64,000 nucleotides of DNA. Origin: an uncultured Erysipelotrichia bacterium. Lineage in GTDB: Bacteria > Bacillota_I > Bacilli_A > JBKEDG01. The stretch lies in the NCBI GenBank assembly GCA_964593055.1, contig CAZQIG010000002.1:28631-92630 (forward strand), in the 5' to 3' direction. A program made the translations under genes and the position numbers. The stretch's first letter is position 1, and each line of letters starts with the position of its first letter. Under the pieces are notes generated by a model, which saw only the letters and a list, made by a program, of their open reading frames with translations, was not told where the DNA came from and did not search any database. Below are positions 4,371 to 61,984 of the stretch, in pieces.

Positions 4371-4467
4371 GGAAACAAGAAGGTAACTGGTGTGCCTACC
4401 GGTCTTCAAAACCGGATTGCGGCATTAAATTGTCGTGGGTGGGTTCGATTCCCATTTGTTTCCGCCA
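4371..4467 (+). tRNA. selC: tRNA-Sec (selC), anticodon UCA
   Basis: 97 nt, GGAAACAA...TTGTTTCC-G-CCA. It has an 8-bp acceptor stem, a long variable arm, the anticodon loop CUUCAAA (TCA at 4406-4408) and an encoded CCA. It is adjacent to selenoprotein genes. Confidence 0.8.
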
Positions 4468-5818: not shown

Positions 5819-6289
5819 ATGTTTAGCGGTAAAAAAATTGTGATTATCGGTGACCGTGATGGAATTCCTGGTGAAGCTATTAAAGCATGTGTTGAAACAA
5901 TTGCAGATGCAGAAGTAGTATTCTCTTCTACGGAGTGTTTTGTCTGAACGGCTGCAGGTGCTATGGATTTAGAGAATCAAAAAAGAGTAAAGGAATTTGC
6001 TGAAAACTACGGTCCTGAAAATTTAGTAGTTATTTTAGGAGCTGGTGAAGGAGAAGCAGCAGGTCTTGCTGCTGAAACAGTAACAGTTGGTGATCCAACT
6101 TATGCTGGACCTTTAGCAGGTGTAGAGCTTGGTTTAAATGTTTTCCATGCTGTGGAAGAAGAATTTAAATCAGCAGTTGATTCAAGTGTTTACGAAGAGC
6201 AAGTTGCAATGATGGAAATGGTTTTAAATGTTGATGAAATCGTTTCAGAAATGTCAGAAATTCGTAAATCTGGTAGTAAATTTTTATAA
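5819..6289 (+). CDS. grdA: Glycine/sarcosine/betaine reductase selenoprotein A (GrdA), with in-frame UGA = Sec at 5945-5947
   Basis: ATG 5819 sits after a GAGGAGG RBS. The translation is [15 protein letters not shown]...STECFV-U-TAAGAMD, which matches the conserved GrdA CFVU motif. The downstream ORF 5963-6289 is in the same frame. Confidence 0.85.
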
Positions 6290-17384: not shown

Positions 17385-17681
17385 TTGATTGATGTTTTTG
17401 ATCTCAACTTAAATATATACTTCATAAGTATTATGTTTTTTCTTGCAACAGTGCCTTTATTGTCATTAAGTAATGGTTTGTATCATAGAAATGCGTTTGT
17501 TGTTTCAAATGCTATGATAATTGTAGTGCTGATGCTTTTAGTAGTATTAAATATTGGATTAGACTCAGAACTTAACTTTTTTCTTATTATAGTTTTGAAT
17601 AGTTTGGGAGTTTTTAATTTAATATATTTTTATTTAAGTGTAGACCTAGAAAAAAATGGCTTTAATACAGCCATACATTGA
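17385..17681 (+). CDS. Hypothetical small membrane protein
   Basis: 98 aa with three predicted TM segments and no recognisable motif. Confidence 0.3.
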   Translation: MIDVFDLNLNIYFISIMFFLATVPLLSLSNGLYHRNAFVVSNAMIIVVLMLLVVLNIGLDSELNFFLIIVLNSLGVFNLIYFYLSVDLEKNGFNTAIH

Positions 17682-17892
17682 AAATCAGAAAATTATTTTT
17701 TTAGATGAGCCATTTAATGTATTCGATAGAGGGCGGTAAATATTTTTGTTATAGTCAATCATAAATTCAACACTGATTTATAGAAAATTAGAACTCAAAC
17801 GTAGAGTTCTTTTTATTTTAGAAGAAATGAAGTCACTAAAAAAGGTTTAGTACATAGGAACAAAGATTGGAAGGGCATTCAATAAAAGAACA

Positions 17893-18009
17893 ACAAGAAT
17901 TAGTTGACTACTTGGATTATTTTCATGTTTTATTTGTTTGAAGTTGAATAGATTTTCGAGATTTTTTGAAGATAGGATATATTTTTTGCATGTTTTATAA
18001 ATTCATCAA
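17893..18009. repeat. R1 repeat, copy A (~117 bp, ~90% identical to 25099-25215)
   Basis: Aligned by eye: acaagaattagttgacYacttggattattttcatgttttatttgtttgaagttgaaYagaYtttcgagattttttgaagataggatatat...ttataaattcatcaa. Confidence 0.6.
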
Positions 18010-18402
18010 GTTGTTGGTAAAGTAAAAAAAGTTTATGAGGTAACTTATTTAAATGATGAAGAAGTTGAAATAAATTTAAAAAGTGAGTTCATTCATAGTG
18101 AAACAGTAGATGAAGGAGTATTATGTGAAACTAAAGTTATTCAAGATAATAAGAACAATTCTTTAGATAATGATTCAAAACAGACATATGACAATAGCGA
18201 TATACTTAAGATAGAAACACCGAAAGGAGCAGGTGGTACGGAAAATAAATCAGTATCTAAAGATGATATAGTTGCTCATAATAAGATGGGAGCATTTGCT
18301 AATAAGCTAGTATGTGAAAAATATGGTGATATTAATTATAAAGAACATGAGTTTTTAGACTTCTCGGATGGTAGCTTTAACATTCTGGGTATAAATAAAT
18401 AG
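18001..18402 (+). pseudogene. 3' fragment of a Rep_1-family rolling-circle replication initiator (no start codon)
   Basis: 134 in-frame codons ending ...AFANKLVCEKYGDINYKEHEFLDFSDGSFNILGINK*. This is paralogous to the C-terminus of the frameshifted Rep at 21988-22745. The EKYG..K region resembles the catalytic-Tyr motif III. Confidence 0.5.
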
Positions 18403-18522
18403 TTGAAATATATATAATAAAATGGTATATTTGTGTAAATAGGGAAGAAATCGTGAAAATAGTGATGAAAAAAATCATATATAATGATTGTGTCTAAATC
18501 ATTATATAAAGGGGAGAAAAAT

Positions 18523-18873
18523 ATGAAAAGATTCTTATCAATATTTATGTTATTATCTGTATTTTTTACATTTAATATCAATACACACGAAGTAGAGGCT
18601 GCTGTAAAGTGTAAAACTATCTATATAGGATATGGCAATCATAAAACAATTGTTTGTGAAGGAATTGATTACACATTCTTTAATGAGTATATATCAAAGC
18701 ATGAGATTCCGACTTTAGCATGGCAATCTGGTGCAAGTGTTAAGCGTAAAGGTGATGGGGTAAAAGAATGTCGTACAAGCCGTATGGGTTACATGGTTAA
18801 GGCAGATATCAGAGTCAATGGTAATGGCGCAAAATATTATCAAGGCCCTAGTTGTTATGTTGATACATATTAA
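18523..18873 (+). CDS. Secreted Cys-containing small protein (signal peptide plus ~90-aa mature part with 4 Cys)
   Basis: RBS AAAGGGGAG before ATG 18523. Signal MKRFLSIFMLLSVFFTFNINTHEVEA. It lies upstream of an ABC exporter pair. Confidence 0.5.
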   Translation: MKRFLSIFMLLSVFFTFNINTHEVEAAVKCKTIYIGYGNHKTIVCEGIDYTFFNEYISKHEIPTLAWQSGASVKRKGDGVKECRTSRMGYMVKADIRVNGNGAKYYQGPSCYVDTY

Positions 18874-18880
18874 AGGAGAA

Positions 18881-18912
18881 TAGCGCTTATTATTATAAGC
18901 GCTAACTTTTTA
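18881..18912 (+). terminator. Hairpin plus T-tract between the secreted-protein gene and the ABC permease
   Basis: TAGCGCTTAT-tatt-ATAAGCGCTA 10-bp stem followed by ACTTTTTA. Confidence 0.5.
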
Positions 18913-20825
18913 TGAAAAAAAATAGTATAACAATTATTTTAATAGTATTTATAGCCAACATAATTTTTTTAAATTATTTTTCTGATTCCAATATTATTAA
19001 ATTAAATGATGGAAAGTATGAAATTAATATTAAAAACATTGAAAATATTCATGATTTTTTACTATACATAGAAATAAATGAAATTGATGTTCAGGTAGAT
19101 GCTGAATATAATGAAGAATATCATACTTTTATTAGCGAATCATATATAAAAAGAACAGGTTTGGACAGCAATAAAAATTGTTTTACAGATAGTTTTAATT
19201 TTTATTTTTCAGAAAAAACCAACTATTGTAAATTAAATATGCTACCTTCTTTTAATGAAAGTTATAATTTTATTAATGATGATGATTTTACGTTAATGAA
19301 GGAATACTTAACAAGAAACAATATCGAATATTCTGTGACATCATTTAATTATATTTTAGAAACTATAGATTATACAATCATCTTTATAATAATGGCTATT
19401 TTGTTGATGTTGTTATTTCTGTTTGATGCGCAACATAATTTGAAAGTAAAAGCCATTTTAAAATTGAGTGGTTATAGTACTCTTGAAATTATTTTGAAAT
19501 ATTTTAAAATAATTTTTTTAGTAAGCACATTAGCTATTTTATTAATTTTATTATTTGATGCTGCTTTAATTATCTATTCAACACAAGTTTCAGAATTTAC
19601 AATTTTTGTGAAAAATTTTGGTTTGAATTTTATAGTAATTTCCTTTGGGATATATTTTCTCTATTTTATGGCTAATCTTTTAAATAACAAAATTAATATT
19701 TTAAAAATATTAAAAGGTAAAATCTCTAAACCTATTGTTTTCACACTTATTTTTACGACAAAATTACTCTTATCAGCATCACTAATTGCTATAGTTATTT
19801 TTAGTGTAATTGAAGTTTATGAAGTTATTGGTGATTTTAGTAATAAAAAACATTGGGATAAGTATGAAGATTATTATAAAATCGGTAACGATGATTATGG
19901 TAGTGATACATTTAGTAAATTTGTAACAGACAATTATGATAATATTATTTACTTTGACTATTATATTCCGAGTGATTATGAATCATATCAAACATATTGT
20001 GTAAATGAAAAAAAATCAATAACATACTGTCATGAGGTAAGGGTGTCCAAATTATTCTATCACGATTTAAGTTTAGATTTAAGTTTAGATATGAATGAAT
20101 ATAATTATGATTTACTAGTATTAGTTCCAGAAATTCATGAGAATGATATTGAAGTAATAAAAAATGAGCATAGCATAATGTACCCAGAATTAGATCTTTT
20201 CTACATTAGTGTCGATGACTATAAATTGTATTCTTATGACACTGGTACAAATATTTTAAATAGAGATTACATTATAGAACCATTAATTGTGATAGATGTT
20301 AAAGGTACACTTGCAAATGAATATTACGAAAATTTGAATAATGCTTATATTTATTCAAGTGATGTTCCTAATATAACTAATTATGTAATAGATTCTGATG
20401 ATATTAAAGGTATTAGGATTGATGAAAGTTTGAAGAAATATTATGAAGATTACTTTAATATAAAAGTCTTTAGGGCTTTGATTATTATCTTAGTAACTTT
20501 TATTGGTATGGCTCTATTAAATATTAATAATAATTATTTTATCAATCAGACAATTAATTTTACAATTGAAAAATCCATAGTTATGAAAACTAATGGTTTT
20601 AGTAACTTTGATATCTATTACTTTATTTATAGCTTTGTAATTTTTGTTTATATGATTACAGCTTTTCTAATTTACTTAATGACAAAAAGCTTTATTGACC
20701 TTAGTTATGTACTGTTAGTTTTATCAGGAGTGTTTATTATATTGGATTGTACTATGATTAATCACAAAATTAATAAGATTGAAAAAACTAAAATAGTAGA
20801 ATTTTTAAAAGGAGGCAGACTATGA
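18912..20825 (+). CDS. ABC transporter permease, FtsX/MacB-like (antimicrobial-peptide exporter type)
   Basis: 637 aa. TM1 is followed by a large extracytoplasmic domain and a 3-TM FtsX-like bundle, repeated. It is translationally coupled to the downstream ATPase. Confidence 0.55.
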   Translation: MKKNSITIILIVFIANIIFLNYFSDSNIIKLNDGKYEINIKNIENIHDFLLYIEINEIDVQVDAEYNEEYHTFISESYIKRTGLDSNKNCFTDSFNFYFSEKTNYCKLNMLPSFNESYNFINDDDFTLMKEYLTRNNIEYSVTSFNYILETIDYTIIFIIMAILLMLLFLFDAQHNLKVKAILKLSGYSTLEIILKYFKIIFLVSTLAILLILLFDAALIIYSTQVSEFTIFVKNFGLNFIVISFGIYFLYFMANLLNNKINILKILKGKISKPIVFTLIFTTKLLLSASLIAIVIFSVIEVYEVIGDFSNKKHWDKYEDYYKIGNDDYGSDTFSKFVTDNYDNIIYFDYYIPSDYESYQTYCVNEKKSITYCHEVRVSKLFYHDLSLDLSLDMNEYNYDLLVLVPEIHENDIEVIKNEHSIMYPELDLFYISVDDYKLYSYDTGTNILNRDYIIEPLIVIDVKGTLANEYYENLNNAYIYSSDVPNITNYVIDSDDIKGIRIDESLKKYYEDYFNIKVFRALIIILVTFIGMALLNINNNYFINQTINFTIEKSIVMKTNGFSNFDIYYFIYSFVIFVYMITAFLIYLMTKSFIDLSYVLLVLSGVFIILDCTMINHKINKIEKTKIVEFLKGGRL

Positions 20826-21445
20826 TTAAGATTAAAAATTTGAGTAAAAAATTCGATGATAAAAATATATTTAATAATTTAAATCTCTCTTTTGACAAGA
20901 GTGAGCTTGTAGCTATTATTGGTAAGAGTGGTTGTGGTAAAAGTACTTTACTCAATATTATTGGATTACTAGAAAGTTATGATGGAAATCTTGAAATACT
21001 AGGTAAAAATAATCCGAATCTTAATAAAAAAGATGGTCGAGAGCTTTTAAAAAATGAAATTGGATTTATTTTTCAAAACTTTGCTTTGATTGATAATTTG
21101 ACAGTTAGTCAAAATCTGAAGCTCGTCAGTAAGTATAACAACTCTGATTTAAGCTTTGAAGATGCTTTAAAAAAAACTGATACATTAGATTTAATTGACA
21201 AAAAGGTGTCTCAATTAAGTGGTGGTGAACAACAAAGAGTGGCTATTAGTAGGCTAATTTTAAAAAATCCTCAAATTATCTTAGCTGATGAACCAACAGG
21301 AAGCTTAGATGAAGAAAATAGAGATAAGATTTTGGCATTAATGAGAAATTTTGTAGATAATGGGAAACTTGTAATTATTGTTACGCATGAAAAAGAAATA
21401 GCAAACAAGTGTGATGTAATTATCAACTTGGAGGAATATGTATGA
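20822..21445 (+). CDS. ABC transporter ATP-binding protein
   Basis: Walker A GKSGCGKST, signature LSGGEQQRV, Walker B ILADEPTGSLD. Confidence 0.85.
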   Translation: MIKIKNLSKKFDDKNIFNNLNLSFDKSELVAIIGKSGCGKSTLLNIIGLLESYDGNLEILGKNNPNLNKKDGRELLKNEIGFIFQNFALIDNLTVSQNLKLVSKYNNSDLSFEDALKKTDTLDLIDKKVSQLSGGEQQRVAISRLILKNPQIILADEPTGSLDEENRDKILALMRNFVDNGKLVIIVTHEKEIANKCDVIINLEEYV

Positions 21446-21912
21446 AAAAGATTTTTGTGCTCTTATTGGTGTTGATAATATTTTTTATTGGAGGGTATTT
21501 AATCTTTTTGAGTTTATCTGATAAAGAAATGAAATTGTATACTAAAGAGTTTTATGAACTAGGTTATACAGATTTTGATGATAAAGAGAATATTTATTCT
21601 AAAAAAGATACTTATGAAGGTTATAATACAACATATAGCTATCACTTGAGTTCAAATTACTTGAGTGTCAGTGTCTTTTTGAACAATAATACGCATATGT
21701 ATAATTTAGCATCAGATGATGGAAAGTTAATAGATTATGTTTTCTTAAATTTTGAAGAAAATACTAAATTTGAATGTAATGTTGGTGAAAGTGAGATATT
21801 TCAAGACAAGTGTCCAGATATTTATGGTGTATATAATGAAGCAAATGTAATTGAAGTTCTTGAAAAGATGTATGATGAAGAATTAATAAAAATAGAAAAT
21901 ATTATTGATTAA
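21442..21912 (+). CDS. Membrane-anchored extracytoplasmic hypothetical protein
   Basis: N-terminal TM followed by a Cys-containing soluble domain. It overlaps the ATPase stop. Confidence 0.4.
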   Translation: MKKIFVLLLVLIIFFIGGYLIFLSLSDKEMKLYTKEFYELGYTDFDDKENIYSKKDTYEGYNTTYSYHLSSNYLSVSVFLNNNTHMYNLASDDGKLIDYVFLNFEENTKFECNVGESEIFQDKCPDIYGVYNEANVIEVLEKMYDEELIKIENIID

Positions 21913-21987
21913 TTTTTTATAACTGTATATTAAAATTAGTGTTTTGGAGCTTTAATAGCTCTTTTTATTTTAGAAAAAGGAGAAAGT

Positions 21988-22745
21988 ATGCAACTAAAAA
22001 AGGATTTAGTACAAAAAGTAAATATAAAGAAGAACCAAATAATTTATAACTACTATTTAAAAAGTAGTGCATACAATAGAGAAGTAAAAGACTTTAGAGA
22101 TGGAACGCATCTAACAGTAGGAGATAAGCTGGTCTATAAAGTAAGCTCCACAACACTTGTTTGATGGGATATAATTTCAATCATACACTTTCTCCTTGTT
22201 ACATAAACTATAATAATAAATTAAACTTACTAAAACTATCGGAGATATTTGATAGTTTTTTTGAAAAGTATCATATAGATGAGAAGTTTTTCTTTGTAAC
22301 GCTAACAATGCCAAGTCTAAAGTCGGACATAGAGTTGTTAGAAGAAAATAACAAACTGATTAAAAAAGCTAATCAAGTTATTACTAGCTTATATAAACAG
22401 CTAGAAAAGAAGTATGGAACAAATGAATTAATCAAAAAGTATGAAGTCACATATAGTACAGTAAAGGTGATGTTTACAGTCACCCATATTTTCATTTAAT
22501 CATAACATTACCGCCGAATGTATGGCAGATGAAAAGTACAGAGTTAGAAGTGTCGTCAAGAGAGTATATTATAAATTACTAGTATAAGCACTTTTTAAGT
22601 AAGCATTTTGAAATTAAATTTGAAGATGCATTAGGATCATTTGCAAATGAAGTAGCATGTGAAAAATATGGTGAAAACAATTATAAGACACATGAGTGTT
22701 TACCACTATCAGATGGAAGTTTTAATATTATTGGTATAAATAAAT
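21988..22745 (+). pseudogene. Rep_1-family (pC194/pUB110-type) rolling-circle replication initiator, disrupted by at least two frameshifts
   Basis: Three consecutive frames give an N-terminal piece (MQLKKDLVQ...), then FFFVTLTMPS (motif I FLTLT-like) to HPYFHLII (HUH motif II), then ...SFANEVACEKYGENNYK...GINK* (motif III Tyr region). Confidence 0.55.
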
Positions 22746-22862
22746 AGTTGAAATGTAGATGGTAAAATGGTATATTTATGTAAACAAGACATACTTTGTA
22801 AATAAAAGGGGGATAGTATAAACACATTATTAATGTCCAAATACATTATAAGGGTGGTTATT

Positions 22863-23900
22863 ATGAAAAAAATAATTCGTCAAATAATAATTATAATTTT
22901 GGGTGTGGTTGTATTAGTGCCGTCGCACATTAATGCTATAAGTAAAAGTAGTGATAAAAATAGTAACGCATTTGAAACTTATATTCCAGAGTCACTAGAA
23001 TATGATGAATATACAATTGATTTTTATAAGGAATATAAAAATTATAGGTTAGCAAAAGATGAAATACTTAGAAAATATAATAGCTTAATAGTGAAGTATA
23101 ATAAAGAGTATGAAGAAAACTTGAAATTAGAAACATATGATGATATTCAAAATGCAATAGCATATGGGGTACTATTGATGGATGATGACCAGTTTTATAA
23201 GAAGGCAGGTGAATTTGTGGGAAAATTAGATATTTTGGAAAACACGTTTAAAAATAGTGATATAAACATATTATATAAATCATTGTTTAAAAGAAATGCT
23301 AATGAGTTCAATTCACTATCAATGCTTGCCATTTCAACTCCAGCCAATGAAAATAGCCAAGATATTTATAAAAATGTAGTGGAACCAGCAATTGGAAGAC
23401 AACGTGCGTCTTTCAATAAAAGTAATGCAATTAATTATGCAAAAAAACATGCAACAAATAGGAATAGCAGTTATAAAAGTTTAGATTTAGATTGTACAAA
23501 TTTTGCATCACAAATTTTAAGAGCTGGTGGATGGTCGTATACAGCTACATGGAGATATAGTTCCTTAAAAATTCCTAAAACATGGTCAAGAGCTGATTAT
23601 TTTGTGAAGTACTGGTCAAAATATGATAGCACAACTTGGGGTAGTTTTAATACTTTAACAACCTATGTGCGTGGCGGAGATTTTATTACATATGATAGCT
23701 CTAGAGATGGTGACTGGGATCATGTTGCTTTTGTGACCGCTAGATCATCATCATATTATCGTCAAAACGGTAGAAAATATTATTCAACGAAGATTGCACA
23801 GCATACTTCTGATTATCACAAATGGGCATACTATACAGGTTGGCAAAATTTTGACACCTCTTCTAGAGATAGGTATTATAGATATTTACGTTTTTGGTAA
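22863..23900 (+). CDS. Secreted protein with a C-terminal putative amidase (Amidase_6-like, papain-fold Cys/His) domain
   Basis: Signal peptide MKKIIRQIIIIILGVVVLVPSHINA. The C-terminal region contains DLDCTNFASQILRAGGW ... DWDHVAFV. ATG 22863 follows a GGGTGG RBS. Confidence 0.45.
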   Translation: MKKIIRQIIIIILGVVVLVPSHINAISKSSDKNSNAFETYIPESLEYDEYTIDFYKEYKNYRLAKDEILRKYNSLIVKYNKEYEENLKLETYDDIQNAIAYGVLLMDDDQFYKKAGEFVGKLDILENTFKNSDINILYKSLFKRNANEFNSLSMLAISTPANENSQDIYKNVVEPAIGRQRASFNKSNAINYAKKHATNRNSSYKSLDLDCTNFASQILRAGGWSYTATWRYSSLKIPKTWSRADYFVKYWSKYDSTTWGSFNTLTTYVRGGDFITYDSSRDGDWDHVAFVTARSSSYYRQNGRKYYSTKIAQHTSDYHKWAYYTGWQNFDTSSRDRYYRYLRFW

Positions 23901-23921
23901 TTAATTGAAAGGGGATAGGAA

Positions 23922-24479
23922 ATGAAAAAATTCAATCTTTTATTAATTGTGGTTGTATTGCTTTCAGGATGTAATAAAGATACGGGATTTAACTATGAAG
24001 ATGCAAATTTTAGAGTAAATAACAAATATTATCCGATAAAAAATGAAGATGATTTTAATAGATATTATAGTGTTCCAAAGTCAATATATAATGACTCGGA
24101 AAGTGAAATTTTCAATACTAAAACTAATTATATTAATCCATATTTGATTGGAGATATGTATAATATTGGGATAGAAAGTTTTAATGAAAAATATTACATG
24201 GGTAATACAGGGATCTACTATTTAATAGAAGATACAGCTTTGAAGGATTTTGAGGAGATATCAATTATTATAGGAATGGAATTTTTTGCACAAGATATTT
24301 ATTATAAGAGTATCATTGTTAATGGTGAGTGCGAACTAAATATTAGCTATGAAGATTTAGATAATAATGTAGTTAATTATTCATCTTCTGAGGAAGCATG
24401 TGAACTGTTAAAAGAATATAACGAAGAATTTTATGATGAATTAAATAATTATTTAAAATCAGCTTATGGATATGAGTAG
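23922..24479 (+). CDS. Lipoprotein, hypothetical
   Basis: Lipobox LLSGC at residues 13-17; 185 aa; two Cys in the mature part. Confidence 0.5.
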   Translation: MKKFNLLLIVVVLLSGCNKDTGFNYEDANFRVNNKYYPIKNEDDFNRYYSVPKSIYNDSESEIFNTKTNYINPYLIGDMYNIGIESFNEKYYMGNTGIYYLIEDTALKDFEEISIIIGMEFFAQDIYYKSIIVNGECELNISYEDLDNNVVNYSSSEEACELLKEYNEEFYDELNNYLKSAYGYE

Positions 24480-24684
24480 TATGAAAGCTTTATTTTCATG
24501 TAAATATCTATAGAGTGATTAGAATACTATGTAGAATATATGATTAATTTATGTGTCATGTGGTAATTTAAGAGCTTTATGTAAAAGTTAATGGAATTTA
24601 GAACTATGAAGGAAAGATTATTCATTATATGGTACGTATAAAGCAAGATGTAATCACTAAAAACAATAGACAGGAGTTAAATAA

Positions 24685-24990
24685 GTGGAAATAGTTTATT
24701 TTGAACCAAATTCAATTTTTGTGTTACTGTTATTTTTAGGACTCTTCTATTTAGCAACATTCACAATATGTTTGGTTACTATTAAATTTGATGTTCTGGG
24801 GAAATTGTTTTTAGTAGTATCTTTACTATTGTATTTATATGTTGGATATTATATGACAGCTGCTAGTTATTATGCTGATGACAAGTCACTGGATATATTT
24901 TCAAGTTATGGATATTTGGAATTAATAATATTAGTATATCCTTACATATTTTTATCAATAGCATGTAGGTTTGGAGAGAAAAAAAATTAA
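24685..24990 (+). CDS. Hypothetical small membrane protein
   Basis: 101 aa with 3 TM segments. GTG start. Confidence 0.3.
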   Translation: MEIVYFEPNSIFVLLLFLGLFYLATFTICLVTIKFDVLGKLFLVVSLLLYLYVGYYMTAASYYADDKSLDIFSSYGYLELIILVYPYIFLSIACRFGEKKN

Positions 24991-25098
24991 AATAATATAA
25001 TTTTTATACAATTTCTGCAAACGAGTTCAATTAATAAATTGAGCTCGTTTTATTTTGAAAGGAAGGAGAAAGTGCTTAAAATTTAAAAAGACCGCTTT

Positions 25099-25215
25099 AC
25101 AAGAATTAGTTGACCACTTGGATTATTTTCATGTTTTATTTGTTTGAAGTTGAACAGACTTTCGAGATTTTTTGAAGATAGGATATATCTTTTAAAAGTC
25201 TTATAAATTCATCAA
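25099..25215. repeat. R1 repeat, copy B
   Basis: ~90% identical to 17893-18009. No ORF follows this copy. Confidence 0.6.
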
Positions 25216-25649
25216 ATAAAACTGGTTAGTATTATGAAGCAGATTAACATGACAAATACTCCATGAAATTTAGCACTGTATGTGTAAAGTGCTGTAATCT
25301 AGACATGATTAATGAAAACATTAAAATGTAGTATGTTGGTAAAGCAGCTAAAAATGAGTATCATTTTGGAAGAGAACCTTAGGGTTATTTGAAAAATAAA
25401 GAGGAAAAATTAGTTTAGAATCTTAAGGTTAAAGAAACTAATATTATTGGTACTATCGACTTTACTTTAAATAATTTTATGAAACAATGATAAAAGAATT
25501 TAGTGAGGCACAAACTTTGCAAATAAAAACAATTTAAGAGTTAAGGCAATTTCATATGTTCTAGGTTTGTTTTAAGAAAAGAGTCTAATTATGACAGTTG
25601 TTTTTGAAAGAGACATAAAATCAGAATAACTATTTGATATTTTTGTCTT

Positions 25650-25709
25650 TTTTAGTTTTTCTTCCATTGTACAGGTGCATATAAAAACCCCTAAAGTTAG
25701 AATAGTATA
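25650..25709. repeat. R2 repeat, copy A (~60 bp, 3 mismatches vs 27024-27084)
   Basis: Aligned by eye: tttttagtttttcttccattgtacaRgtgcatataaaaacccctaaagttagaRtagtata. The minus strand reads TATACTA..AGGGG-8 nt-ATGCACYTGTACAATGGAAGAAAAACTAAAAA, i.e. a conserved -10-like box, RBS and start of a tiny ORF. Confidence 0.55.
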
Positions 25710-25936
25710 GTTGTTACTATTGTTCTTGTAAAGTTTATAAAATAATTTGATTAAAAGATATATCAACATTATTAGTTATTTAATTGTGTTATACTTAATA
25801 TAAGAAGTATTGAATCATAAATATGGAAGGAGTGAAAATGAGTATATTTAGATTACTAACTTTAGAGAATCATTCAGAATTAGAAATATTAAGTATAGTT
25901 TAATAAAGAATTCTTTAATGATGGAGGCTAATTATA

Positions 25937-26542
25937 ATGAAAAAAACTTTAAATTTGATACTAGTCTTAGTAATTCTTGTATCCACAGGTAGTATTTATA
26001 ATATCAACAAAGGATTTAATTTGTTTTCCAAAGTAATTGAAGCCAATGAGAATGAATACTATGATGATACAGTAGAAAATTTAATAGAATCAGTTAATGA
26101 TTATGATGTGATAAGAATTAATGATGATAAGTATGGAACTAGGTATCTGGGTGGTTATTATGAGTATAAATATTCTCATACTATAACGTATAATGACAAA
26201 TATTTAGGTGTGCACCCTAATTTTTCAGCTTCAAATCCATTATACTCTGATGGCTATTATTTTAGTACTACTAATGATAAAAGGTTTAGTGCATCAGTTA
26301 GTGTAGGGGTTAAATTTGTTTCTGTATCATTTAATGTAGATGCTTCTAGTTCTGTGGGTAGTGGTTACTTTAGGAGTGCTAGTTCTTCTAGAAAGTCTTT
26401 ACCGTATATAAGAGCGGATTTAAAAGTTAAATTCTATGATATGTATATTTATGACGATTATGGAAAACTCTTAGCTATATCACGTGATTATTATACTCAA
26501 ACAACTACATCAGATAGACAAATTTTTATAAAATACTTTTAA
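25937..26542 (+). CDS. Secreted hypothetical protein
   Basis: Signal peptide MKKTLNLILVLVILVSTGSIYN. 201 aa, Tyr/Ser-rich. Confidence 0.4.
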   Translation: MKKTLNLILVLVILVSTGSIYNINKGFNLFSKVIEANENEYYDDTVENLIESVNDYDVIRINDDKYGTRYLGGYYEYKYSHTITYNDKYLGVHPNFSASNPLYSDGYYFSTTNDKRFSASVSVGVKFVSVSFNVDASSSVGSGYFRSASSSRKSLPYIRADLKVKFYDMYIYDDYGKLLAISRDYYTQTTTSDRQIFIKYF

Positions 26543-26564
26543 AGTTTGATTTTAGGGGGAGAAT

Positions 26565-26819
26565 ATGAAAAAAGAAATTATTAAAGCGTTCATATATACT
26601 TTACTTATAGTTGCAATATTTATATTATTAGATAATTACATAGGTTATGTAACTAGCAATTATGTATTAGAATCGTTTCTTGACAATTATAAAGAAATGA
26701 TCAATATATTTTTTCATATATTTACCATTATATTGATTATAATGTGCACAAAATATATACTATATAAAAGAAATAATGATGATATGATTACATTTGAGCG
26801 AAAAGACAATAGTAAATAG
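26565..26819 (+). CDS. Small 2-TM membrane protein
   Basis: 84 aa. RBS GGGGGAG before the ATG. Confidence 0.35.
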   Translation: MKKEIIKAFIYTLLIVAIFILLDNYIGYVTSNYVLESFLDNYKEMINIFFHIFTIILIIMCTKYILYKRNNDDMITFERKDNSK

Positions 26820-27023
26820 AGTAATAGTCTAATAAGAGAGTTAATGCCATTATAGTTGGATATTTAAATTATGATGCCGTTTTAATACAATTATGAATGG
26901 AAGATTTGTAACATAATGGAGAATCAGATTTAAATAAACTAAATGAATGTACAGAAAAATGAGGAGACAAGTATCAGTATAAATTTAAGCTGTAGAGACA
27001 ATTGGAGCTTTCATTTTTAGTTT

Positions 27024-27084
27024 TTCTTCCATTGTACAAGTGCATATAAAAACCCCTAAAGTTAGAGTAGTATATTTATTATAC
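27024..27084. repeat. R2 repeat, copy B
   Basis: Lies ~40 bp from the 3' end of tRNA-Gly. Confidence 0.55.
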
Positions 27085-27121
27085 AATTCTCTCCAACTTA
27101 TGGGGTCTTTTCAATTCTAAA

Positions 27122-27195
27122 TGGAGCGGGTGAAGGGAATCGAACCCTCACAGTCAGCTTGGAAGGCTGAAGTTCTACCATTAAACTACACCCGC
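27122..27195 (-). tRNA. tRNA-Gly (anticodon UCC)
   Basis: Reverse complement GCGGGTGTAGTTTAATGGTAGAACTTCAGCCTTCCAAGCTGA...TTCGATTCCCTTCACCCGCTCCA; CCA is encoded. Confidence 0.85.
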
Positions 27196-27196
27196 A

Positions 27197-27272
27197 TGGC
27201 GGTCCAGACGGGATTCGAACCCGCGATCTCCGCTGTGACAGAGCGGCATGTTAACCACTACACCACTGGACC
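27197..27272 (-). tRNA. tRNA-Asp (anticodon GUC)
   Basis: Reverse complement GGTCCAGTGGTGTAGTGGTTAACATGCCGCTCTGTCACAGCGG...GGTTCGAATCCCGTCTGGACCGCCA. Confidence 0.85.
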
Positions 27273-27349
27273 AGTAGGAATATAATATCATATGGAACTA
27301 TATTTGTAAACAACTTTTTATAAAAAAAAGAAACTGCGAGTAGCAATTT

Positions 27350-28795
27350 CTATAAAAATATTTTTTGGTACTTATTTTTAAGGTACTCAATTAGGTATTG
27401 AATATTAAAGCTTTCACCAGTTACTTCTTCAAGAATTTCCAGCTGTGTCTTTGTAGCAGCTTTTTGGTGAATGTTTTGATGTAACCACTCATGGATTGGT
27501 TTCAAGTTACCAGAACTAAGAACTTTTTCAAAATTCAATTCTTTTTTCATTGTATTTAAAAATTGTGCTGCAAAAGCTGTACCCAATAAATATGTTGGAA
27601 AATAACCAAACTGACCAGCTGACCAGTGAACATCTTGTAAGATGCCATTATTATCTTCATCAACTTCGATATTGAAATATTTAAAGTATAGTTCATTCCA
27701 ACGTTTTTTAGCATCTTTTGGATCAAGTAAACCGTTAAATAGTTCTTTTTCAATATTATATCTCAATAAAATATGGAGTGGATAAGTTAGTTCATCAGCT
27801 TCAACACGGCTATAACTTGGACTCACATCATTGACATACTTATAAAACTCCTTTTCATTTAGATGTGCATACATTGGGAAAATAGTTTTAATTTTGTCGA
27901 AATGTGTTTTTAGAAAAGTTTCATTTGTAAATATAAAAATTTCATAAAAGCGTGACTGTGACTCATGAAAAGCTAGTGATGCAGAAGAGTCTAATAAAGT
28001 ATTTTCTAAATTAGTATCAAATCCTTGCTCGTATTTAGCATGACCTAATTCATGAAATAAACTCTTCATACTTGAAAGAGGGTTATTAGTATATTTAGTT
28101 GTTAGACGTACATCTTGAGTAGAAAGTCCCATACAAAAAGGATGAACACTTTCACTTATCTCTCCTCTTGCTAAATCAAACTCCATGATATCTACAATCC
28201 AATCTTTCATGATTTTTTGTTCATCAAGACAATCATCATTTAATAATTTTGGTTGTACAGCTTTGTTTGCTATGACTTCTTTTACAAAAGGAACTAATTG
28301 TTCTTCAATAACTTTAAAAATTTCATCATATTCTTTAGTAGTAAAGTTTTCTTCAAAACTATCTAATAATGTATCATATAAATTGTCACACGTTGCCATT
28401 ATTTCAGCATTTTTCTTAGCATTATCAATTGAAGCTAACAAAGCAGCTTCATAGATAGAATAATCATTTTTTTGTCGTGCTTCTTCCCATTTTTGATTGG
28501 CCTCAAATCTGATTTTTTGTGTTTCTTGAATAAACTCCTCACTAAATTTTTTGGCATTATCAACAAATTTCAATAATATTTCACAATGCCTTTTGTTTTT
28601 AGGATCTTTTTGAGCTTCTAAAATAGCTTGATAGAATTTATCATCTGTTAAAAGATTTTTTCTATCAATTGTTAATTGGGTCAAATAGTCTTGGACAAAG
28701 CTTGCTGTTTTCACCTTGTTTTTTGTATGGATTTCCCATAACAATACTCCGTATAAATAAGAAGTTTGCTTAAGCAGTTTAATTGTTTTTTCCAT
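27350..28795 (-). CDS. Carboxypeptidase Taq (M32) family metallocarboxypeptidase
   Basis: HELGHAKYE (HExxH), HPFCMGLSTQDVRLTTKY, 481 aa. Confidence 0.85.
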   Translation of the reverse strand: MEKTIKLLKQTSYLYGVLLWEIHTKNKVKTASFVQDYLTQLTIDRKNLLTDDKFYQAILEAQKDPKNKRHCEILLKFVDNAKKFSEEFIQETQKIRFEANQKWEEARQKNDYSIYEAALLASIDNAKKNAEIMATCDNLYDTLLDSFEENFTTKEYDEIFKVIEEQLVPFVKEVIANKAVQPKLLNDDCLDEQKIMKDWIVDIMEFDLARGEISESVHPFCMGLSTQDVRLTTKYTNNPLSSMKSLFHELGHAKYEQGFDTNLENTLLDSSASLAFHESQSRFYEIFIFTNETFLKTHFDKIKTIFPMYAHLNEKEFYKYVNDVSPSYSRVEADELTYPLHILLRYNIEKELFNGLLDPKDAKKRWNELYFKYFNIEVDEDNNGILQDVHWSAGQFGYFPTYLLGTAFAAQFLNTMKKELNFEKVLSSGNLKPIHEWLHQNIHQKAATKTQLEILEEVTGESFNIQYLIEYLKNKYQKIFL

Positions 28796-28819
28796 AAATC
28801 CTCCTTTTCAAACATTATA

Positions 28820-29569
28820 TCATAAATGGAAATTTTTTAGTATTTCTATTTTTGCATGAGGTTTGATTTCAAAATGATTATCGTAGAAAGTTTCACCATC
28901 TATTTGAAATAAGCGTTCATCAGTTTTAATAGTAATATTTTTTGCTGTTGTTATAAAAATATATTTTTTAAAAAGCGGGTGTAATCCTAACTTTAAGAAA
29001 AGGATTAATAAGGGGATTAAGAGCTTATTTATATTATGAGCAATGACTATTTGTAAGTCTTCTTGCTTGAGATTGGCACTAGGTGCAATTTTAAAGCCTT
29101 TTCCAAAATATTTTCCATTTTGACATGAGCATAAGTATACATTTTGAAAAGTTTTAGTTTTTTGGTCATACTTAATTGTAAGAGAAAATGGATGGAAATT
29201 TTTCAAAGCACTGAAAATTGAACGAAAATAAGTTTTTTTATTTTTCGTATTTAGAACATGGCAAATTACGGCATCAATTCCACATCCAAAACCATTAATG
29301 AAAAAATGTTCATTAAGTTTATAGGTATAAGTTAAAATGCTGTTAGAAAAATTTCTTGCTAAGTCATTACCTGTACCGTAAGGATGTAAAATTATTTTTG
29401 ATAAGCTATATTTATTTATAAATTTGTTTAAGGTACCATCACCACCATACAAGTGAATTTCATCATTTTTTGTAAAACTATAGGAACGTTTACAAGTACT
29501 AAGATCAATCATTTCATGTGCATTTTGTGGTATTTTTTTTGCCTTTGAATTATAGAATCTGTATTTCAT
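28820..29569 (-). CDS. Lipid kinase with a DAGK catalytic domain (YegS/DgkB-like)
   Basis: LYGGDGTLNKF and HPYGTGNDLARNF. Confidence 0.5.
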   Translation of the reverse strand: MKYRFYNSKAKKIPQNAHEMIDLSTCKRSYSFTKNDEIHLYGGDGTLNKFINKYSLSKIILHPYGTGNDLARNFSNSILTYTYKLNEHFFINGFGCGIDAVICHVLNTKNKKTYFRSIFSALKNFHPFSLTIKYDQKTKTFQNVYLCSCQNGKYFGKGFKIAPSANLKQEDLQIVIAHNINKLLIPLLILFLKLGLHPLFKKYIFITTAKNITIKTDERLFQIDGETFYDNHFEIKPHAKIEILKNFHL

Positions 29570-29693
29570 ATTACAACTCCTTTAAGAACTACTAATAATT
29601 GTAACAAAAAATGGTAAAATTGAAAATAATTGTGTTATAATAATTTTATGAGAAAATGAAAGAAATACAATCTTTGAAATAGGAGTGATAACG

Positions 29694-30131
29694 ATGAAAA
29701 TAGCACTTGGAAGTGACCACGGTGGCTTTTTTTTAAAGAAAATTGTTTTAGACTATTTATTAAAAGAAGGATATGAAGTTGAGGATTGTGGCACGTATAA
29801 TGAAGAAAGTGTGACATATGCTGATTATGGTATTTTAGTCGGTGAAAAAGTAAGAGATGGGAAAGTTGATCGTGGAATTGTTATTTGTGGTAGTGGTGTA
29901 GGAATTAGTATTGCAGCTAACAAAGTTGTTGGAGTAAGGTGTGCTTTAGTTAGTGAGCCTTATTCAGCAAGGCTTTCTAGAGAGCATAATGATGCCAATG
30001 TTTTAGCATTAGGCGCGCGATTAATAGGTCCTGATATGGCTCTTGAAATTATTAAAACTTGGCTTATAACAGAATTTGAGCAAGGAAGACATGTGAAAAG
30101 GATTAAGGTGATGACAGATTATGAGGAGTGA
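29694..30131 (+). CDS. rpiB: Ribose-5-phosphate isomerase B
   Basis: [11 protein letters not shown]...[18 protein letters not shown] 29694 follows an AGGAG RBS. Confidence 0.85.
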
Positions 30132-30135
30132 AAAG

Positions 30136-31365
30136 ATGGATGAGACAGTACTTAATGTTTTAAATAGTGAGTTAAAAAGACAAAGGAATAATATTGAGTT
30201 AATTGCTTCTGAAAATTTTGTTTCAAGAGAAGTAATGCAAGTTCAAGGAAGTATTTTAACTAATAAATATGCAGAAGGATATAGTGGTAAAAGGTACTAC
30301 GGTGGTTGTGAATATATTGATGTAGTAGAAGATATTGCAATTGAAAGAGTCTGTAAATTATTTGGTAGTAAATATGCTAATGTTCAACCACATTCAGGAT
30401 CATCAGCTAATATGGCAGCGATTAGAGCATTAATTAATCATGGTGATGTAGTTTTGGGAATGAAGCTTGATCATGGTGGACATTTAACACATGGGCATCC
30501 TTTAAGTTTTAGTGGTGGAGATTATACTATCTATAGTTATGGTGTTAGTTTAGTCTCAGAATTGATAGACTATTCTGAAGTTGAACGCTTGGCTTTGAAA
30601 CATAAACCTAAGTTGATTATTGCTGGTGCTAGTGCTTATACACGTGAGATAGACTTTAAAAAATTTCGTGAGATAGCTGATAAAGTTGATGCTTACTTAT
30701 TAGTTGACATGGCACATATCGCTGGTCTAGTTGCTACATCTTTACACATGAATCCTTGTCCTTATGCTGATGTTGTAACTTCTACGACACATAAAACGCT
30801 AAGAGGTCCACGTGGAGGAATAATTTTAACTAATGATGAGAAAATAGTGAAAGCTATTAATCGTGAAGTTTTTCCAGGTATTCAAGGTGGACCGTTAATG
30901 CATGTTATCGGGGCAAAAGCAGTAGCTTTTGGAGAAGCTTTGTCAATTGATTTTAAAATATATCAGGAGCGTGTTGTTGAAAATGCTAGATTTTTAGCGA
31001 GTACTTTAGAAAAATTAGGGTATCGATTAGTAAGTGGTGGAACTGATAATCATATTGTGTTAGTCGATGTAAAAAAATCGGTGCAGATGACTGGTAAAAA
31101 AGCTGAGCAGTTGTTAGATGATATAGGCATAACATGTAATAAAAACACGGTTCCTTTTGATGATGAAAAACCTTTTATTACAAGTGGAATTAGATTAGGA
31201 ACAGCTGCTATGACGACAAGGGGGTTAAATGTAGAAGATTTCATTGAAATAGCACATATTATTGATAGTACTTTAAAAGAAAAAGATACAGTTGAAAATT
31301 TACGTACTAGAGTTTTAGAAATAACGAAAAAGTATCCACTATATGAGGAGCATAAGTATGAGTAA
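30136..31365 (+). CDS. glyA: Serine hydroxymethyltransferase
   Basis: PLP site [14 protein letters not shown]. ~410 aa. Confidence 0.9.
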
Positions 31366-31984
31366 AGTAGTAGTTTTTGATCATCCTTTGATTCATCATA
31401 AGTTGACGTATTTAAGAGATATAAATACTAAACATTTTATTTTTAAGAAGACTGTTGATGAAATTACACTATTAATGGCATATGAAGCAACGAGAAATTT
31501 AACTTTAAAGCCAAAAGATATTGAAACACCGATTGAGAAGATGACAGGAAATGTTTTAGAAAAAGAAGTTGTTATTGTACCAATATTAAGAGCTGGTCTT
31601 GGAATGGTTGAAGGTATTTTAACTTTAATTCCGACTGCAAGAACGGGGCATCTAGGTATGTTTCGTGATCCTAAAACGTTAGAACCAGTTGTTTATTATA
31701 AAAAATTTCCTGATCAAATTAAGGATGGAGCAGTTTTTGTTGTCGATCCTATGTTAGCAACAGGAGTCAGTGCTATTGAAGCAATTAAAATTGTAAAAGA
31801 ATCGGGTGCCAAAAATATTTGTTTTATGGGACTTGTTGGTTGTCCAGAAGGCGTAGAAGCACTGCATCAAGCTCATCCAGATGTACCAATTTATTTAGCA
31901 GCATTAGATGAAAAATTGAATGAGCATGCTTATATTGTACCAGGATTAGGCGATGCTGGTGATCGTTTATATGGGACAAAATAA
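31358..31984 (+). CDS. upp: Uracil phosphoribosyltransferase
   Basis: [17 protein letters not shown]...[12 protein letters not shown]. Confidence 0.9.
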
Positions 31985-57134: not shown

Positions 57135-57163
57135 TTGACAGCATTAATATAAAATGTGATAAT
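57135..57163 (+). promoter_or_regulatory. Near-consensus sigma-A promoter for the effector gene (TTGACA-17-TGtGATAAT)
   Basis: -35 TTGACA at 57135-57140 and extended -10 TGnGATAAT at 57155-57163. This places ATG 57156 inside the promoter, so the real start is ATG 57222 after the GTGGGGGGA RBS. Confidence 0.55.
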
Positions 57164-57221
57164 GAAAATATATTTTAAAGACTACTTATGTTATCAAAAA
57201 ATTTTAAAGTGGGGGGATTTA

Positions 57222-60200
57222 ATGAGAATAACTAAGCAAAAGTGGTACTGTGTTAGTGGTGTAGAAAATGAGCTGTTTTACGACAAGTATAATAGAAGAT
57301 ATTTTTATTTAAAAGAAAATAATCAAAGGTGTGTAATTGATAAAAACGATTTTTACATACAATTAAAAACAAGAGGGAATAGTCAAAATAAAGAGTTTAA
57401 TATTCTAAAAAAGAAAAATATTTACAAAAAAGATATGTCTAGTTATAAAAAACTTGAAGAAAAAATAGATTTCAAAAGTAAAACTAAACTATATTTTAAA
57501 AGAGGTGGAAAATATTCTGAAATTTATGATAATGAAAAACAGTTAGCAGTAAATCGTCATAATTTTATTTGTGATATTAATAGTATTCATAACGAATTTT
57601 TAAAAGAAACTATGAAGCATGAAAAAGTTGATGAAGATATCTGTAATAATTTTACCGATAAATATTTTAATGTAATTGACAAATATACGAAAGAAAGTGA
57701 AGAAGTTATAAGTGATAAAGCGTTACGCGATTCAAGGTCTGTATCTATTTCAAAGATTTTGAAGCATAATGAAAAATCTTTAATAAATAGATTTGGAACA
57801 AGAGCTATTGAATGTGAAATTCAATTAGCAAAATCAATTATTAATTTTCATAAGAAACAGAAGCTTTCCAAAAAACTGAATGAATTTTATACAGAATTAA
57901 CTAAAGAATATAACAGAAGTATGAAAAGATATGGATTAACTTCTAAAAATTCAAAAAGTAATAGAAATGATATTATTGAAAGTTTGAATTATAATAAAAT
58001 TTTAGAGATTAGTACATTTAATGATTTAAAAAATAAAATCGGTGTAGTAATTGAAGCTTATGACTTATCTAAATTATGTGTAAAAATTATTGATAATAAA
58101 GCAACATATTATAAAGAGTTTAAAAATCCTAATGGAAAAAATAATATTAAATATACTTTATTTGATGACATAAGAAAACATTATCAAGACACCTTTAAAA
58201 ATTTTGATGAAAAAATGAAAGACACTATTAATAATAGCTGTTTAATTGTTAAAGAAAATGAATATAAATTTGTTTTGAAGTATGTTCATAATTATGTATT
58301 AGGTAGAGCAAGAAAAATAAAAAAATATGTTGAAAGTAAAGATTTAGAACTTGAGGATGACTTTATTGAAAAGGCTTTTGAACACAAGAAATTAAAAACA
58401 AAAATAGAAAATAGGGTTCTTTCTACTTTTAATACTCAACTGAATAGTATGAAAAAAGAAAAAGCCTTAGATTTGACTGAAAATCTAGAAAAAGAAATTG
58501 GGTTGCAGTTAGCAAAAATTCAAGATACGTATTCTAATAAATTAAATAATTTAATTTACGAAACAGTATACAAATTTTTATCTTCCATCGATAGAAAAAA
58601 TGATATATTGGGAGCAAGTGAATTATGTGACTTAAAGAAGGATATAGGAGAAACAAAATTTGAAAGTAATAAAGAACTATATATATCAGCATATTTGTTG
58701 AGAAACTATACAATTCATTACCAAAATTTTGATAAACAAAATGAAATTAGAGATGATAATGCTTTTAGTTTGAAAAATTATTGCCCCAAGTCATCAGTAG
58801 ATAAAATAAGCAAATATGTTGTGTCACAGTTTGAGTATAATAATACATTTAAATATATTGATAATAATATATTTAAAAAATCAATAGACTTACTTCAATT
58901 AAATCATATTAAGGATTTAATATTTCCAAGGTTTGATAAAATTTTCAAACTTATAGTAAATGATAAAAATTTTAAATGTTTTGAGCCTAAATTATTTTTT
59001 GATTTAAATGATGAGTTTAAATTTTGTTATAAATACTTATTGAATAGAATTTATTCACAGGGATTTGCAACAAACACTGATAAAACTAAAAATTACCTTG
59101 AAAAAAAACAGCAATTTATGAACGAGTGTCATGGTAATGTAGTAATGGTAGAAAAACAAATAATTGAGCTTATTGCTCAAGATTTTATAGAATATTTATC
59201 TGATAATAAGATTGAATTTAATTTGAATGATGATTTTGATAAATGTAATATAGATGAAAATAAAAGATACTTAGAATTAAAGTTAAAGAAATTTGAATTT
59301 TCAGATTATAATTCAATTAAAGATTCAAATGATTTTATTATTAGTATATATCATCTAGGAATTAATGCAACAGTTGAAATATTGAGTGAGTTATTGCAAA
59401 ATACTATAAAATATAAGTCCCTTTTAATAAGTTTGAAAGAAAAGTATAAAGAAGAGCATAAGATTTTTTTAGAAGCTTTCCAAAAAGTAACTCGATTTAA
59501 TGAAGAATTTTATACTAGTATTGAGTGTTATTTGAGCGAATTTGAGAAATTAATAAAAATATTAAAAAATGAATTGATGATTAAAAATTATGATTTAAAT
59601 AGTAATTTAAATTGTCATAATAAATTCGAGAGTGAATTATTGAAAATTTTCAATAAAAATAGCAGGGTAGAATTTAAAAGTCTTGATGAAGTAAAATATC
59701 AAAAAGCGAATAAAAATAATGAAAGTATTGAAGTGAATCTTTGGAAACCAGAAAGTAAAACTAAAAATGTTGATATAATAAACAATAAGTTTTTAATTAG
59801 AGAGTATACTAATGGAACACTAAAGTTCAGCTTAGATTTACATACTCATTGTATGAAAGAAACAAAATTGTACTATAATGAAATTATTGCTGAAATAAAT
59901 ACGTTTAATAAAACTATATCTAGGGATGATTTATTAGAAAATAAAGATTTGATAGATACAATTATGGGTTCTAAAGATAATCATAAGCAATTTGAAAGTA
60001 TGTCTAGAATAGTATATTATCAAAAAATGAGGCAATTAATCCAGGGTAAATATAAAGAGCTTTATAACGAAGCAAAAATGAATAATAAAAATAGGAGAAT
60101 TTTATACTCGGATATTTTTAAAGATAATAAAGAATTAGTAAATAAAACAAGCGCAATTCACAAAGAAGCAAGTGATGGAATAAATAAGTATAATTTTTAT

Positions 60201-61879: not shown

Positions 61880-61984
61880 GAAGTACTTAAAATTCGAAAC
61901 TATTTTCTAAAAAAAAAGAAAAAACAGTATTTGAAATACCAAAAACGTTGTTATATCAATAAAAAAATATGTTATATGTTTGCG
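61880..61984 (+). promoter_or_regulatory. CRISPR leader (A/T-rich, ~105 bp) between cas2 and the first repeat
   Basis: The A-rich stretch contains TTGAAA and TATGTTATAT promoter-like boxes. The degenerate repeat lies at the far end of the array, so this end is leader-proximal. Confidence 0.5.

Follow-up and report, generated by a model that had tools for sequence, protein, structure and literature searches.

A decayed, apparently chimeric Rep_1 replication gene in a chromosomal island of an uncultured Erysipelotrichia bacterium

Plasmids of the pC194/pUB110 type replicate by a rolling circle that is initiated by Rep proteins of about 230-330 amino acids. These plasmids are structurally unstable and give rise to deletion derivatives between short direct repeats. 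Operons of the lactococcin 972 type, which comprise a precursor, a large membrane protein and an ATP-binding cassette (ABC) ATPase, are plasmid-borne in Lactococcus. Rep proteins of the Rep_1 family (PF01446) act in mobilisation besides replication (PMC5357655; PMC5714925), and the nick site of their origins has the consensus CTTGATA (PMC10378824). Here we have analyzed a stretch of 64,000 nucleotides from an uncultured Erysipelotrichia bacterium (contig CAZQIG010000002.1, assembly GCA_964593055.1; hereafter the window). In it, two independently decayed Rep_1 genes of the pC194/pUB110 type, at 21988-22745 and at 18001-18402, had been proposed from the sequence alone (the original prediction).

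We have found that the window holds one Rep_1 pseudogene, which we call copy 2. Like the described family, copy 2 and its relatives match PF01446 and carry motif I (FFVTLTMP) and the motif II region (HPHFHLII in the relatives), and the relatives also have an E-x3-Y motif III and a CTTGATA nick-type site (PMC10378824; PMC5714925). The locus differs in that the window copy is a pseudogene with the HUH histidine mutated, motif III deleted and no nick site, in that the proteins of its subfamily are longer (383-475 amino acids), and in that the candidate nick site lies within the 3' third of the open reading frame (ORF), where it encodes GLDNSTSS. We consider it likely that the island around this gene (17.8-27.1 kb) is a decayed array of at least two, and probably three, Rep_1 elements, in which copy 2 is chimeric and a repeat that we call D3 consists of the tail of another gene, X, plus a promoter.

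The Rep_1 pseudogene and its lesions

As had been predicted, copy 2 is readable across three frames (21988-22161; 22167-22454, with FFFVTLTMPS; and 22457-22745, with HPYFHLII), and its pC194/pUB110-type Rep_1 identity was borne out for 21988-22641, where the homology to Rep ends. The joined translation matched Pfam Rep_1 with E = 3.3e-6 and 27.2 bits over positions 27-122 of the 253 in the profile, which is below the gathering score of 33.2 owing to the absence of the last third of the domain. Against a hidden Markov model (HMM) of the family it scored 320 bits. The DNA at 21957-22657 is 86.7% identical to the gene of P0001, an intact Rep of 397 amino acids encoded on the metagenome contig L001, and the two proteins share 82% of their residues. 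Among 5.8 billion proteins we found four intact homologues of copy 2, of 383-397 amino acids, all of them PF01446 members scoring 46-62 bits (53.9 for P0001, the closest of the four). Members of the subfamily are rare: 9 clusters at E < 1e-30 were found among 1.84 billion representative proteins, and 185,579 species genomes contained two loci, of which one is in an Erysipelotrichaceae genome and the other in a metagenome-assembled genome of Bacilli. A sequence search of the PDB with the Rep profile returned no solved relative.

The lesions were read from a three-way alignment of the window, L001 and a contig of a sibling strain, L004. They comprise a 10-nucleotide deletion at 22157/22158, a 1-nucleotide deletion at 22454/22455, a TGG to TAG stop at 22580-22582 and a CAT to TAT change that replaces the first histidine of the HUH motif by tyrosine. 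The 10-nucleotide deletion is a strain polymorphism, because L004 retains these 10 nucleotides. Rescue of the first frameshift by genetic code 4 was ruled out, since after the TGA at 22162-22164 the frame hits a TAA 14 codons on. Of the catalytic motifs, motif I (FxTLT) is present as FFFVTLTMPS, and its columns F-F-V-T-L-T do not vary across the alignment of the family. HPYFH, which the original prediction had taken for the HUH motif, is a degenerate version with Y-F-H in place of the H-F-H that is invariant in all the intact relatives (H194-F195-H196 of P0001). Motif III (E-x3-Y; E..GY.SK in this subfamily) is lacking, as the counterpart of residues 258-262 of P0001 is deleted and the tail of copy 2 has no G-Y. 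Judged from two frameshifts, a stop codon, the replacement of a metal-binding histidine and the loss of the last third of the gene, copy 2 cannot work. When compared to L001, the three rep pieces have ratios of nonsynonymous to synonymous substitution (dN/dS) of 0.11-0.25, and therefore rep was under purifying selection for most of this divergence and was inactivated recently.

The breakpoint, the deleted end and the ORF X

Against every intact Rep the homology of copy 2 ends at 22641, at about residue 250 of 397, and the last ~147 codons of rep are lost. The switch point is the octamer GGAnCATT (22634-22641; GGAtCATT in copy 2), which is common to copy 2, L001 and the region of D3 copy 1. To the left of it copy 2 matches L001 at 43 of 45 positions and the copy 1 region at 14 of 45; to the right it matches L001 at 19 of 47 and the copy 1 region at 37 of 47. 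As read from this alignment, copy 2 is a chimera in which Rep residues 1-250 are joined in frame, at an 8-nucleotide microhomology, to the tail of another ORF. The two tails had been taken for Rep C-termini in the original prediction, but the one of copy 2 lies beyond the homology to intact Reps, and an ending of the type CEKYG...GINK was found in none of the nine close Rep clusters (139 hits in the profile search of the 1.84 billion representatives).

The part lost from copy 2 includes both motif III and a 33-nucleotide core, cAGGTCTTGATAACAGTACATCAAGTrGTAAA, that contains CTTGATA and encodes the conserved GLDNSTSS; E..GY.SK and GLDNSTSS are kept by all the intact close relatives. The core is 84% identical between five loci, whereas its flanks are 32-40% identical. 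It is located at 10988-11020 in L007, 7650-7682 in L008, 2036-2068 in L009, ~10997-11029 in L011, 4147-4179 in L001 and 11096-11128 in L010, and it contains a weak 6-bp hairpin (CTTGAT/ATCAAG, -3.1 kcal/mol). From its conservation and its CTTGATA, we propose this core, inside the 3' third of the rep ORF, as the candidate double-strand origin of the subfamily. In the candidate sequence cAGGTCTTGATAACAGTACATCAAGT the putative cleavage point for a Rep of the P0001/P0002 type would be CTTG/ATA. The 24-nucleotide centre of the core has no match in the window at up to 3 mismatches, plain CTTGATA is about as frequent in the window as chance predicts (18 found for 13.3 expected), and the island has a single CTTGATA, read on the minus strand within a cargo gene. 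Copy 2 has no cognate origin, and the nick motif that had been expected near each of the two predicted genes is near neither. The core was not found in viral contigs either.

The second predicted gene, at 18001-18402, is indeed a stop-free stretch with no start codon, which we call X. The last codons of X belong to D3, a repeat of 151 nucleotides with 81% identity between its copies (E about 1e-33). The tails encoded by the two copies are identical at 26 of 38 residues (68%), in good agreement with the ~65% that had been estimated. As had also been noticed, the similarity extends beyond the stop codon; it does so for 37 nucleotides, with 86% identity there and 79% in the coding part. Between the two copies dS is 0.73 and dN/dS is 0.24. 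The codon-usage score of X is 0.78 in frame and negative in the other frames, the real genes scoring 0.67 +/- 0.21. Because of this score and of the dN/dS of the coding part of D3, we read X as a former coding sequence.

X was supposed to be the C-terminal third of a second Rep, and we have found no significant similarity to support it. The X protein had no homologue among the 5.8 billion proteins, no Rep_1 match at E <= 10 in Pfam, and nothing in the Pfam and PHROG families beyond a weak match to G5 (E = 0.056). The Rep_1 profile search, which had been named as a possible refutation of the original prediction, recognized copy 2 and not 18001-18402. Against the Rep family HMM, X scored -0.5 bits (E = 0.03-0.14 at Z = 1), and the tails and the peptides encoded by another repeat, D4, were also at chance level. 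In a frameshift-aware alignment of DNA to the profile X reached 32.2, the null from 436 other segments of the window being 28.2 +/- 5.4, and unit 3 of the island was not significant in this test either. Finally, Smith-Waterman alignments of D3, unit 1 and unit 3 with the 3' thirds of five rep genes remained within the range of dinucleotide shuffles.

These results bear on the best surviving alternative, namely that 18001-18402 is the C-terminal third of a strongly diverged second Rep_1, D3 being a true Rep C-terminus and copy 2 having suffered an internal in-frame deletion. X does lie downstream of a genuine rep 5' stub, where the 3' end of rep would be expected, and its tail is aligned by MAFFT with the region of motif III. 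Weak colinear matches to the Rep profile occur at HMM positions 259-269 and 290-344, among them SLDN where the Reps have GLDN, and both the in-frame junction and the dN/dS of D3 would fit as well. However, each of these matches has p ~0.03-0.14 before any correction for multiple tests, 18.6% of the genomic segments score as high as X in the frameshift-aware alignment, and no DNA similarity to the relatives' rep 3' thirds is seen. Moreover, none of the 139 Rep relatives ends like D3, the close intact ones keeping E..GY.SK and GLDNSTSS, the tail lacks the catalytic G-Y, and the codon-usage score of X contrasts with the 0.14-0.24 of the rep pieces. We regard this explanation as unlikely, and we read D3 as the 3' end of X, a gene other than rep, plus a promoter-like site, rather than as a second Rep C-terminus.

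Units, repeats and setting of the island

The features of the island are collected in Table 1. Although the proposal of two decayed Rep genes reduces to one pseudogene, there are further rep remnants which had not been noticed, the 5' stubs at 17790-17854 and, probably, at 25041-25073. Both are homologous at the DNA level to the hairpin, ribosome-binding site (RBS) and first codons of an intact rep, and a hairpin precedes each of the three rep starts. The unit 1 stub shares 79.7% identity over 74 nucleotides with L001 3121-3194, which comprises the hairpin and the intact rep start (E about 4e-10), and 77% identity with 21957-22013 of unit 2; it reads MKSLKKV* where Rep has MQLKKDLV. The unit 3 stub gave a weaker match (84.8% over 33 nucleotides of L001, 3136-3168; E about 4e-4), and its hairpin has a folding energy of -11.3 kcal/mol (z = -4.7). 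In units 1 and 3 the rep 5' stub is followed by D4, which shows no sign of coding and matches none of the relatives.

Table 1. Features of the island and its right-hand border, in positions of the window.
Feature	Position	Strand	Description
Unit 1 rep stub	17790..17854	+	Terminator-like hairpin (17790-17810), T-run, decayed RBS and Rep 5' end; ATG at 17827, MKSLKKV*
Repeat D4, copy 1	17893..18009	+	93% identical to copy 2; codon-usage score negative in all frames
ORF X	18001..18402	+	Start-less, 133 stop-free codons; in-frame codon-usage score 0.78
Repeat D3, copy 1	18289..18439	+	Last 37 codons of X, stop and promoter-like site
Cargo cassette 1	18484..21912	+	Secreted protein (129 aa), membrane protein (637 aa), ABC ATPase (207 aa), membrane-anchored protein (156 aa)
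Hairpin ahead of rep copy 2	21946..21962	+	Terminator-like; hairpin scan
Rep copy 2	21988..22641	+	Rep_1 (PF01446) pseudogene
Repeat D3, copy 2	22634..22784	+	Joined in frame to Rep at the octamer; includes promoter-like site
Cargo cassette 2	22833..24990	+	Secreted Amidase_6 protein (355 aa; Pfam 5e-22), lipoprotein-like protein (185 aa), membrane protein (101 aa)
Unit 3 hairpin and probable rep stub	25019..25073	+	Terminator hairpin (25019-25050); probable Rep 5' stub (25041-25073) with GTG start and early stops
Repeat D4, copy 2	25099..25215	+	117 nucleotides
Cargo cassette 3	25646..27081	+	Secreted protein (201 aa; 25937-26542), membrane protein (84 aa); bracketed by D5
tRNA-Gly(TCC) and tRNA-Asp(GTC)	27122..27272	-	Right-hand limit of the island

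Each unit carries its own cargo. Cassette 1 resembles the lactococcin 972-type operon in its order of a small secreted protein, a many-spanning membrane protein of ~640 amino acids and an ATPase of ~207 amino acids, and, both in the window and in L001, this gene order is linked to a plasmid-type rep that lies downstream of it. The ATPase matches Pfam ABC_tran and has TIGR03608, the family of bacteriocin export ABC proteins of the lactococcin-972 group, as its best NCBIfam match (5e-71), although its 238.4 bits are just below the family cutoff of 254.85. A further difference is the extra 156-residue gene. The secreted and membrane proteins resemble the family in gene order and sizes only, as neither the 129-residue nor the 637-residue protein matched any Pfam or NCBIfam family, the Lactococcin_972 precursor and membrane-protein families included. 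The cassette 3 unit of 1.3 kb is enclosed by D5, a direct repeat of 71 nucleotides (25646-25716 and 27011-27081, 93% identical), which may be a duplicated target or an attachment (att)-like sequence. The right D5 copy is 40 nucleotides from tRNA-Gly.

The part of D3 that follows the stop codon holds the sequence TTGAAA-17-TGgTATATT (18403-18431 in copy 1 and 22748-22776 in copy 2), in which both hexamers and the TG are identical in the two copies whereas the 17-nucleotide spacer differs at 4 positions. It lies ~50-90 nucleotides upstream of the first cargo gene of units 1 and 2. By its near-consensus form, it is probably an extended -10 promoter that drives the cargo genes. A scan of metagenome contigs with this pattern gave no further copies, the one chance match being inside a Bacteroidetes-like pyrG.

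The window derives from the chromosome of a low-GC bacterium (29% GC) and carries uvrA, the glycine reductase genes and tRNA-Sec, copA, the ATP synthase operon, polA and rnr. The island (9.4 kb, 26% GC) is located between two genes for bPH_2-domain proteins and the tRNA-Gly/tRNA-Asp pair. Sequence identical to parts of window 17515-31445 is present in Logan contigs as well as in three metagenome assemblies of NCBI, and one sibling contig is 99.75% identical to the window over 17515-23467. Because the sequence is identical in three independent assemblies and in Logan contigs, the arrangement is not an assembly artefact. Independent metagenome assemblies break just left of the island, at 17515-17621 (L002 and L004 start at 17515, L013 ends at ~17621 and L015 at ~17535), which may be due to heterogeneity among strains or to a repeat at the island edge. 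Exact-protein look-ups of both flanks did not reveal an empty site or a variant island, since every contig had the same arrangement or broke near 17515-17621. No recombinase or transfer genes are found within ~10 kb on either side of the island and no partition genes are left in the window. The left edge of the island has no repeat of at least 13 nucleotides in common with its right part, and D5 is the only repeat that brackets a cassette. An integrative element with a recombinase and att sites is not recognizable. A scan with Rfam detected tRNAs only.

Two other loci of the window were observed. A CRISPR-Cas locus (57156-62625; CRISPR, clustered regularly interspaced short palindromic repeats) comprises an ORF of 1175 codons (57156-60683), cas1 (60646-61572), cas2 (61547-61879) and an array (61985-62600) with ~10 copies of the 36-nucleotide repeat GATTTATTACACCCCAAAAACGAAGGGGACTAAAAC, which we take to resemble the Cas13a repeats of Leptotrichia. 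The 1175-residue product has no Pfam, NCBIfam or PDB sequence match, and it contains exactly two R-N-x3-H (HEPN-type) motifs, at residues 516 and 1078; the locus is probably a divergent type VI-A system. The gene grdA, encoding selenoprotein A of glycine reductase (5822-6289), is split into two ORFs by an in-frame TGA (STECFV*TAAG), the expected selenocysteine codon, and the tRNA-Sec is at 4371-4467, 1.4 kb upstream.

Origin of the island and its meaning

The explanation that we favor is that related mobile elements with a Rep_1-type rolling-circle initiator built the island beside tRNA-Gly/tRNA-Asp. Each unit is laid out as a terminator hairpin, the rep RBS and start, a rep remnant and genes for secreted or membrane proteins, with the promoter-like site in units 1 and 2, and the ancestral order would have been rep, X, promoter and cargo. 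In unit 2, rep would have been truncated at the 8-nucleotide microhomology GGAGCATT and fused in frame to the last ~36 codons of X, probably by a deletion through microhomology-mediated illegitimate recombination, whereas a longer relic of X, with 133 codons and no start, would survive in unit 1. The joining of sequences at a common 8-nucleotide stretch is reminiscent of the deletion derivatives of rolling-circle plasmids, with the difference that here the event is seen in a chromosomal remnant and that its mechanism is deduced from the junction alone. The tandem accretion could have proceeded, perhaps, by homologous recombination of incoming elements with the resident rep remnant, and selection would have kept the cargo while the replication genes decayed. 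The tandem integration and later degeneration of related elements, as originally proposed, is upheld to the extent that the Rep remnants come from more than one element; these may have been small plasmids or larger conjugative elements, the relatives of this Rep being mostly on larger conjugative or partitioned elements.

Several points weigh against this explanation. X has no homologue, and its identity as a separate gene is argued from negative evidence. Besides the SLDN of X, there are two weak colinear hints of Rep, since D4 encodes QQELVDYLDYFH, to be compared with SQEIFDYAYVH of Rep, and the ANEVA of the tail matches ANEVAGY of P0004. The in-frame fusion and a D3 dN/dS below 1 would also fit the natural end of a Rep variant. 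In addition, the D3 promoter is proposed from its consensus match, the probable unit 3 stub from 33 nucleotides, and the limits of the island and its mode of integration are deduced with neither an empty site nor an island-free relative having been found.

A more speculative view, which we consider doubtful, is that the array is more than debris and that the rep stubs and D3 serve as resident "landing pads" for related Rep_1 plasmids or conjugative elements (such as that of L001, from the same samples), which would recombine by homology into the chromosome and leave secreted-toxin/immunity cassettes behind, in an integron-like accretion of antibacterial cassettes beside tRNA-Gly/tRNA-Asp. Before its decay, a truncated Rep without the catalytic tyrosine might also have hindered incoming plasmids.

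Another possibility is that a single integration event was followed by duplication of the element in situ, the tandem copies then diverging and decaying. Rolling-circle plasmids form head-to-tail multimers, and the units do have one layout and the repeats D3, D4 and D5. However, the three cargo cassettes are mutually unrelated, and the dS and dN/dS of D3 point to divergence under selection in separate functional genes and not to neutral decay following a duplication in place. Because the unit 1 stub resembles unit 2 (77%) no more than it does the external L001 (80%) and the cargos are unrelated, separate acquisitions explain the units better than a local duplication, which is very improbable. 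Least probable of all is that D3 was kept for a function in cis, as a promoter/leader module or a recombination site marking the start of exchangeable secreted-protein cassettes: the identical -35, TG and -10 elements, the better conservation of the post-stop part than of the coding part and the position of both copies directly upstream of unrelated cassettes would agree with it, but the codon-position pattern and host-like codon score indicate that D3 evolved as protein, unit 3 has no D3, and the scan of metagenome contigs yielded no further copies.

With regard to the type of element from which the array derives, the Reps P0003, P0004 and that of L011 lie beside transfer genes, as in the conjugation-associated Rep_1 proteins of ICEBs1-mobilised plasmids and conjugative elements. 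Their neighbours encode VirD4/TraG-type coupling proteins, a MobL relaxase, ArdC, a Toprim primase, a single-stranded DNA-binding protein (SSB), ParM and a serine recombinase, the partition-type neighbours among the Rep relatives being ParM or ParAB. Because of these gene neighbours, we conclude that the subfamily is mostly carried by conjugative or partitioned elements and not by minimal pC194-like plasmids. The window differs from them in having no transfer, partition or recombinase gene, and L001 (4.6 kb) in showing only a bacteriocin-type ABC operon upstream of rep and a small ORF downstream. No terminal overlap indicative of circularity was found in L001, L008 or L009. L001 (1-4609; GCA_019826105.1) is from a sample that also gave a contig identical to the window. 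Its intact rep follows a different lactococcin-972-like operon, with two small secreted proteins, a membrane protein of 628 amino acids and an ABC ATPase, and the product of the small ORF after rep, judged by eye, resembles a ribbon-helix-helix protein. The decayed copy may therefore share its habitat, or even its host, with a live element of this family.

The region is ordinary mobile-element debris of a known kind, and our understanding of rolling-circle replication is unchanged by it. For annotation, the locus should be described as one Rep_1 pseudogene, two stubs and the relic of a gene other than rep, instead of two Rep genes. It documents a very recent and still polymorphic decay of rep after chromosomal capture and provides a clean example of truncation at an 8-nucleotide microhomology. 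Finally, it draws attention to a rare Rep_1 subfamily that has a candidate nick site embedded in its own coding sequence, at GLDNSTSS, and whose members are usually found with conjugation genes.

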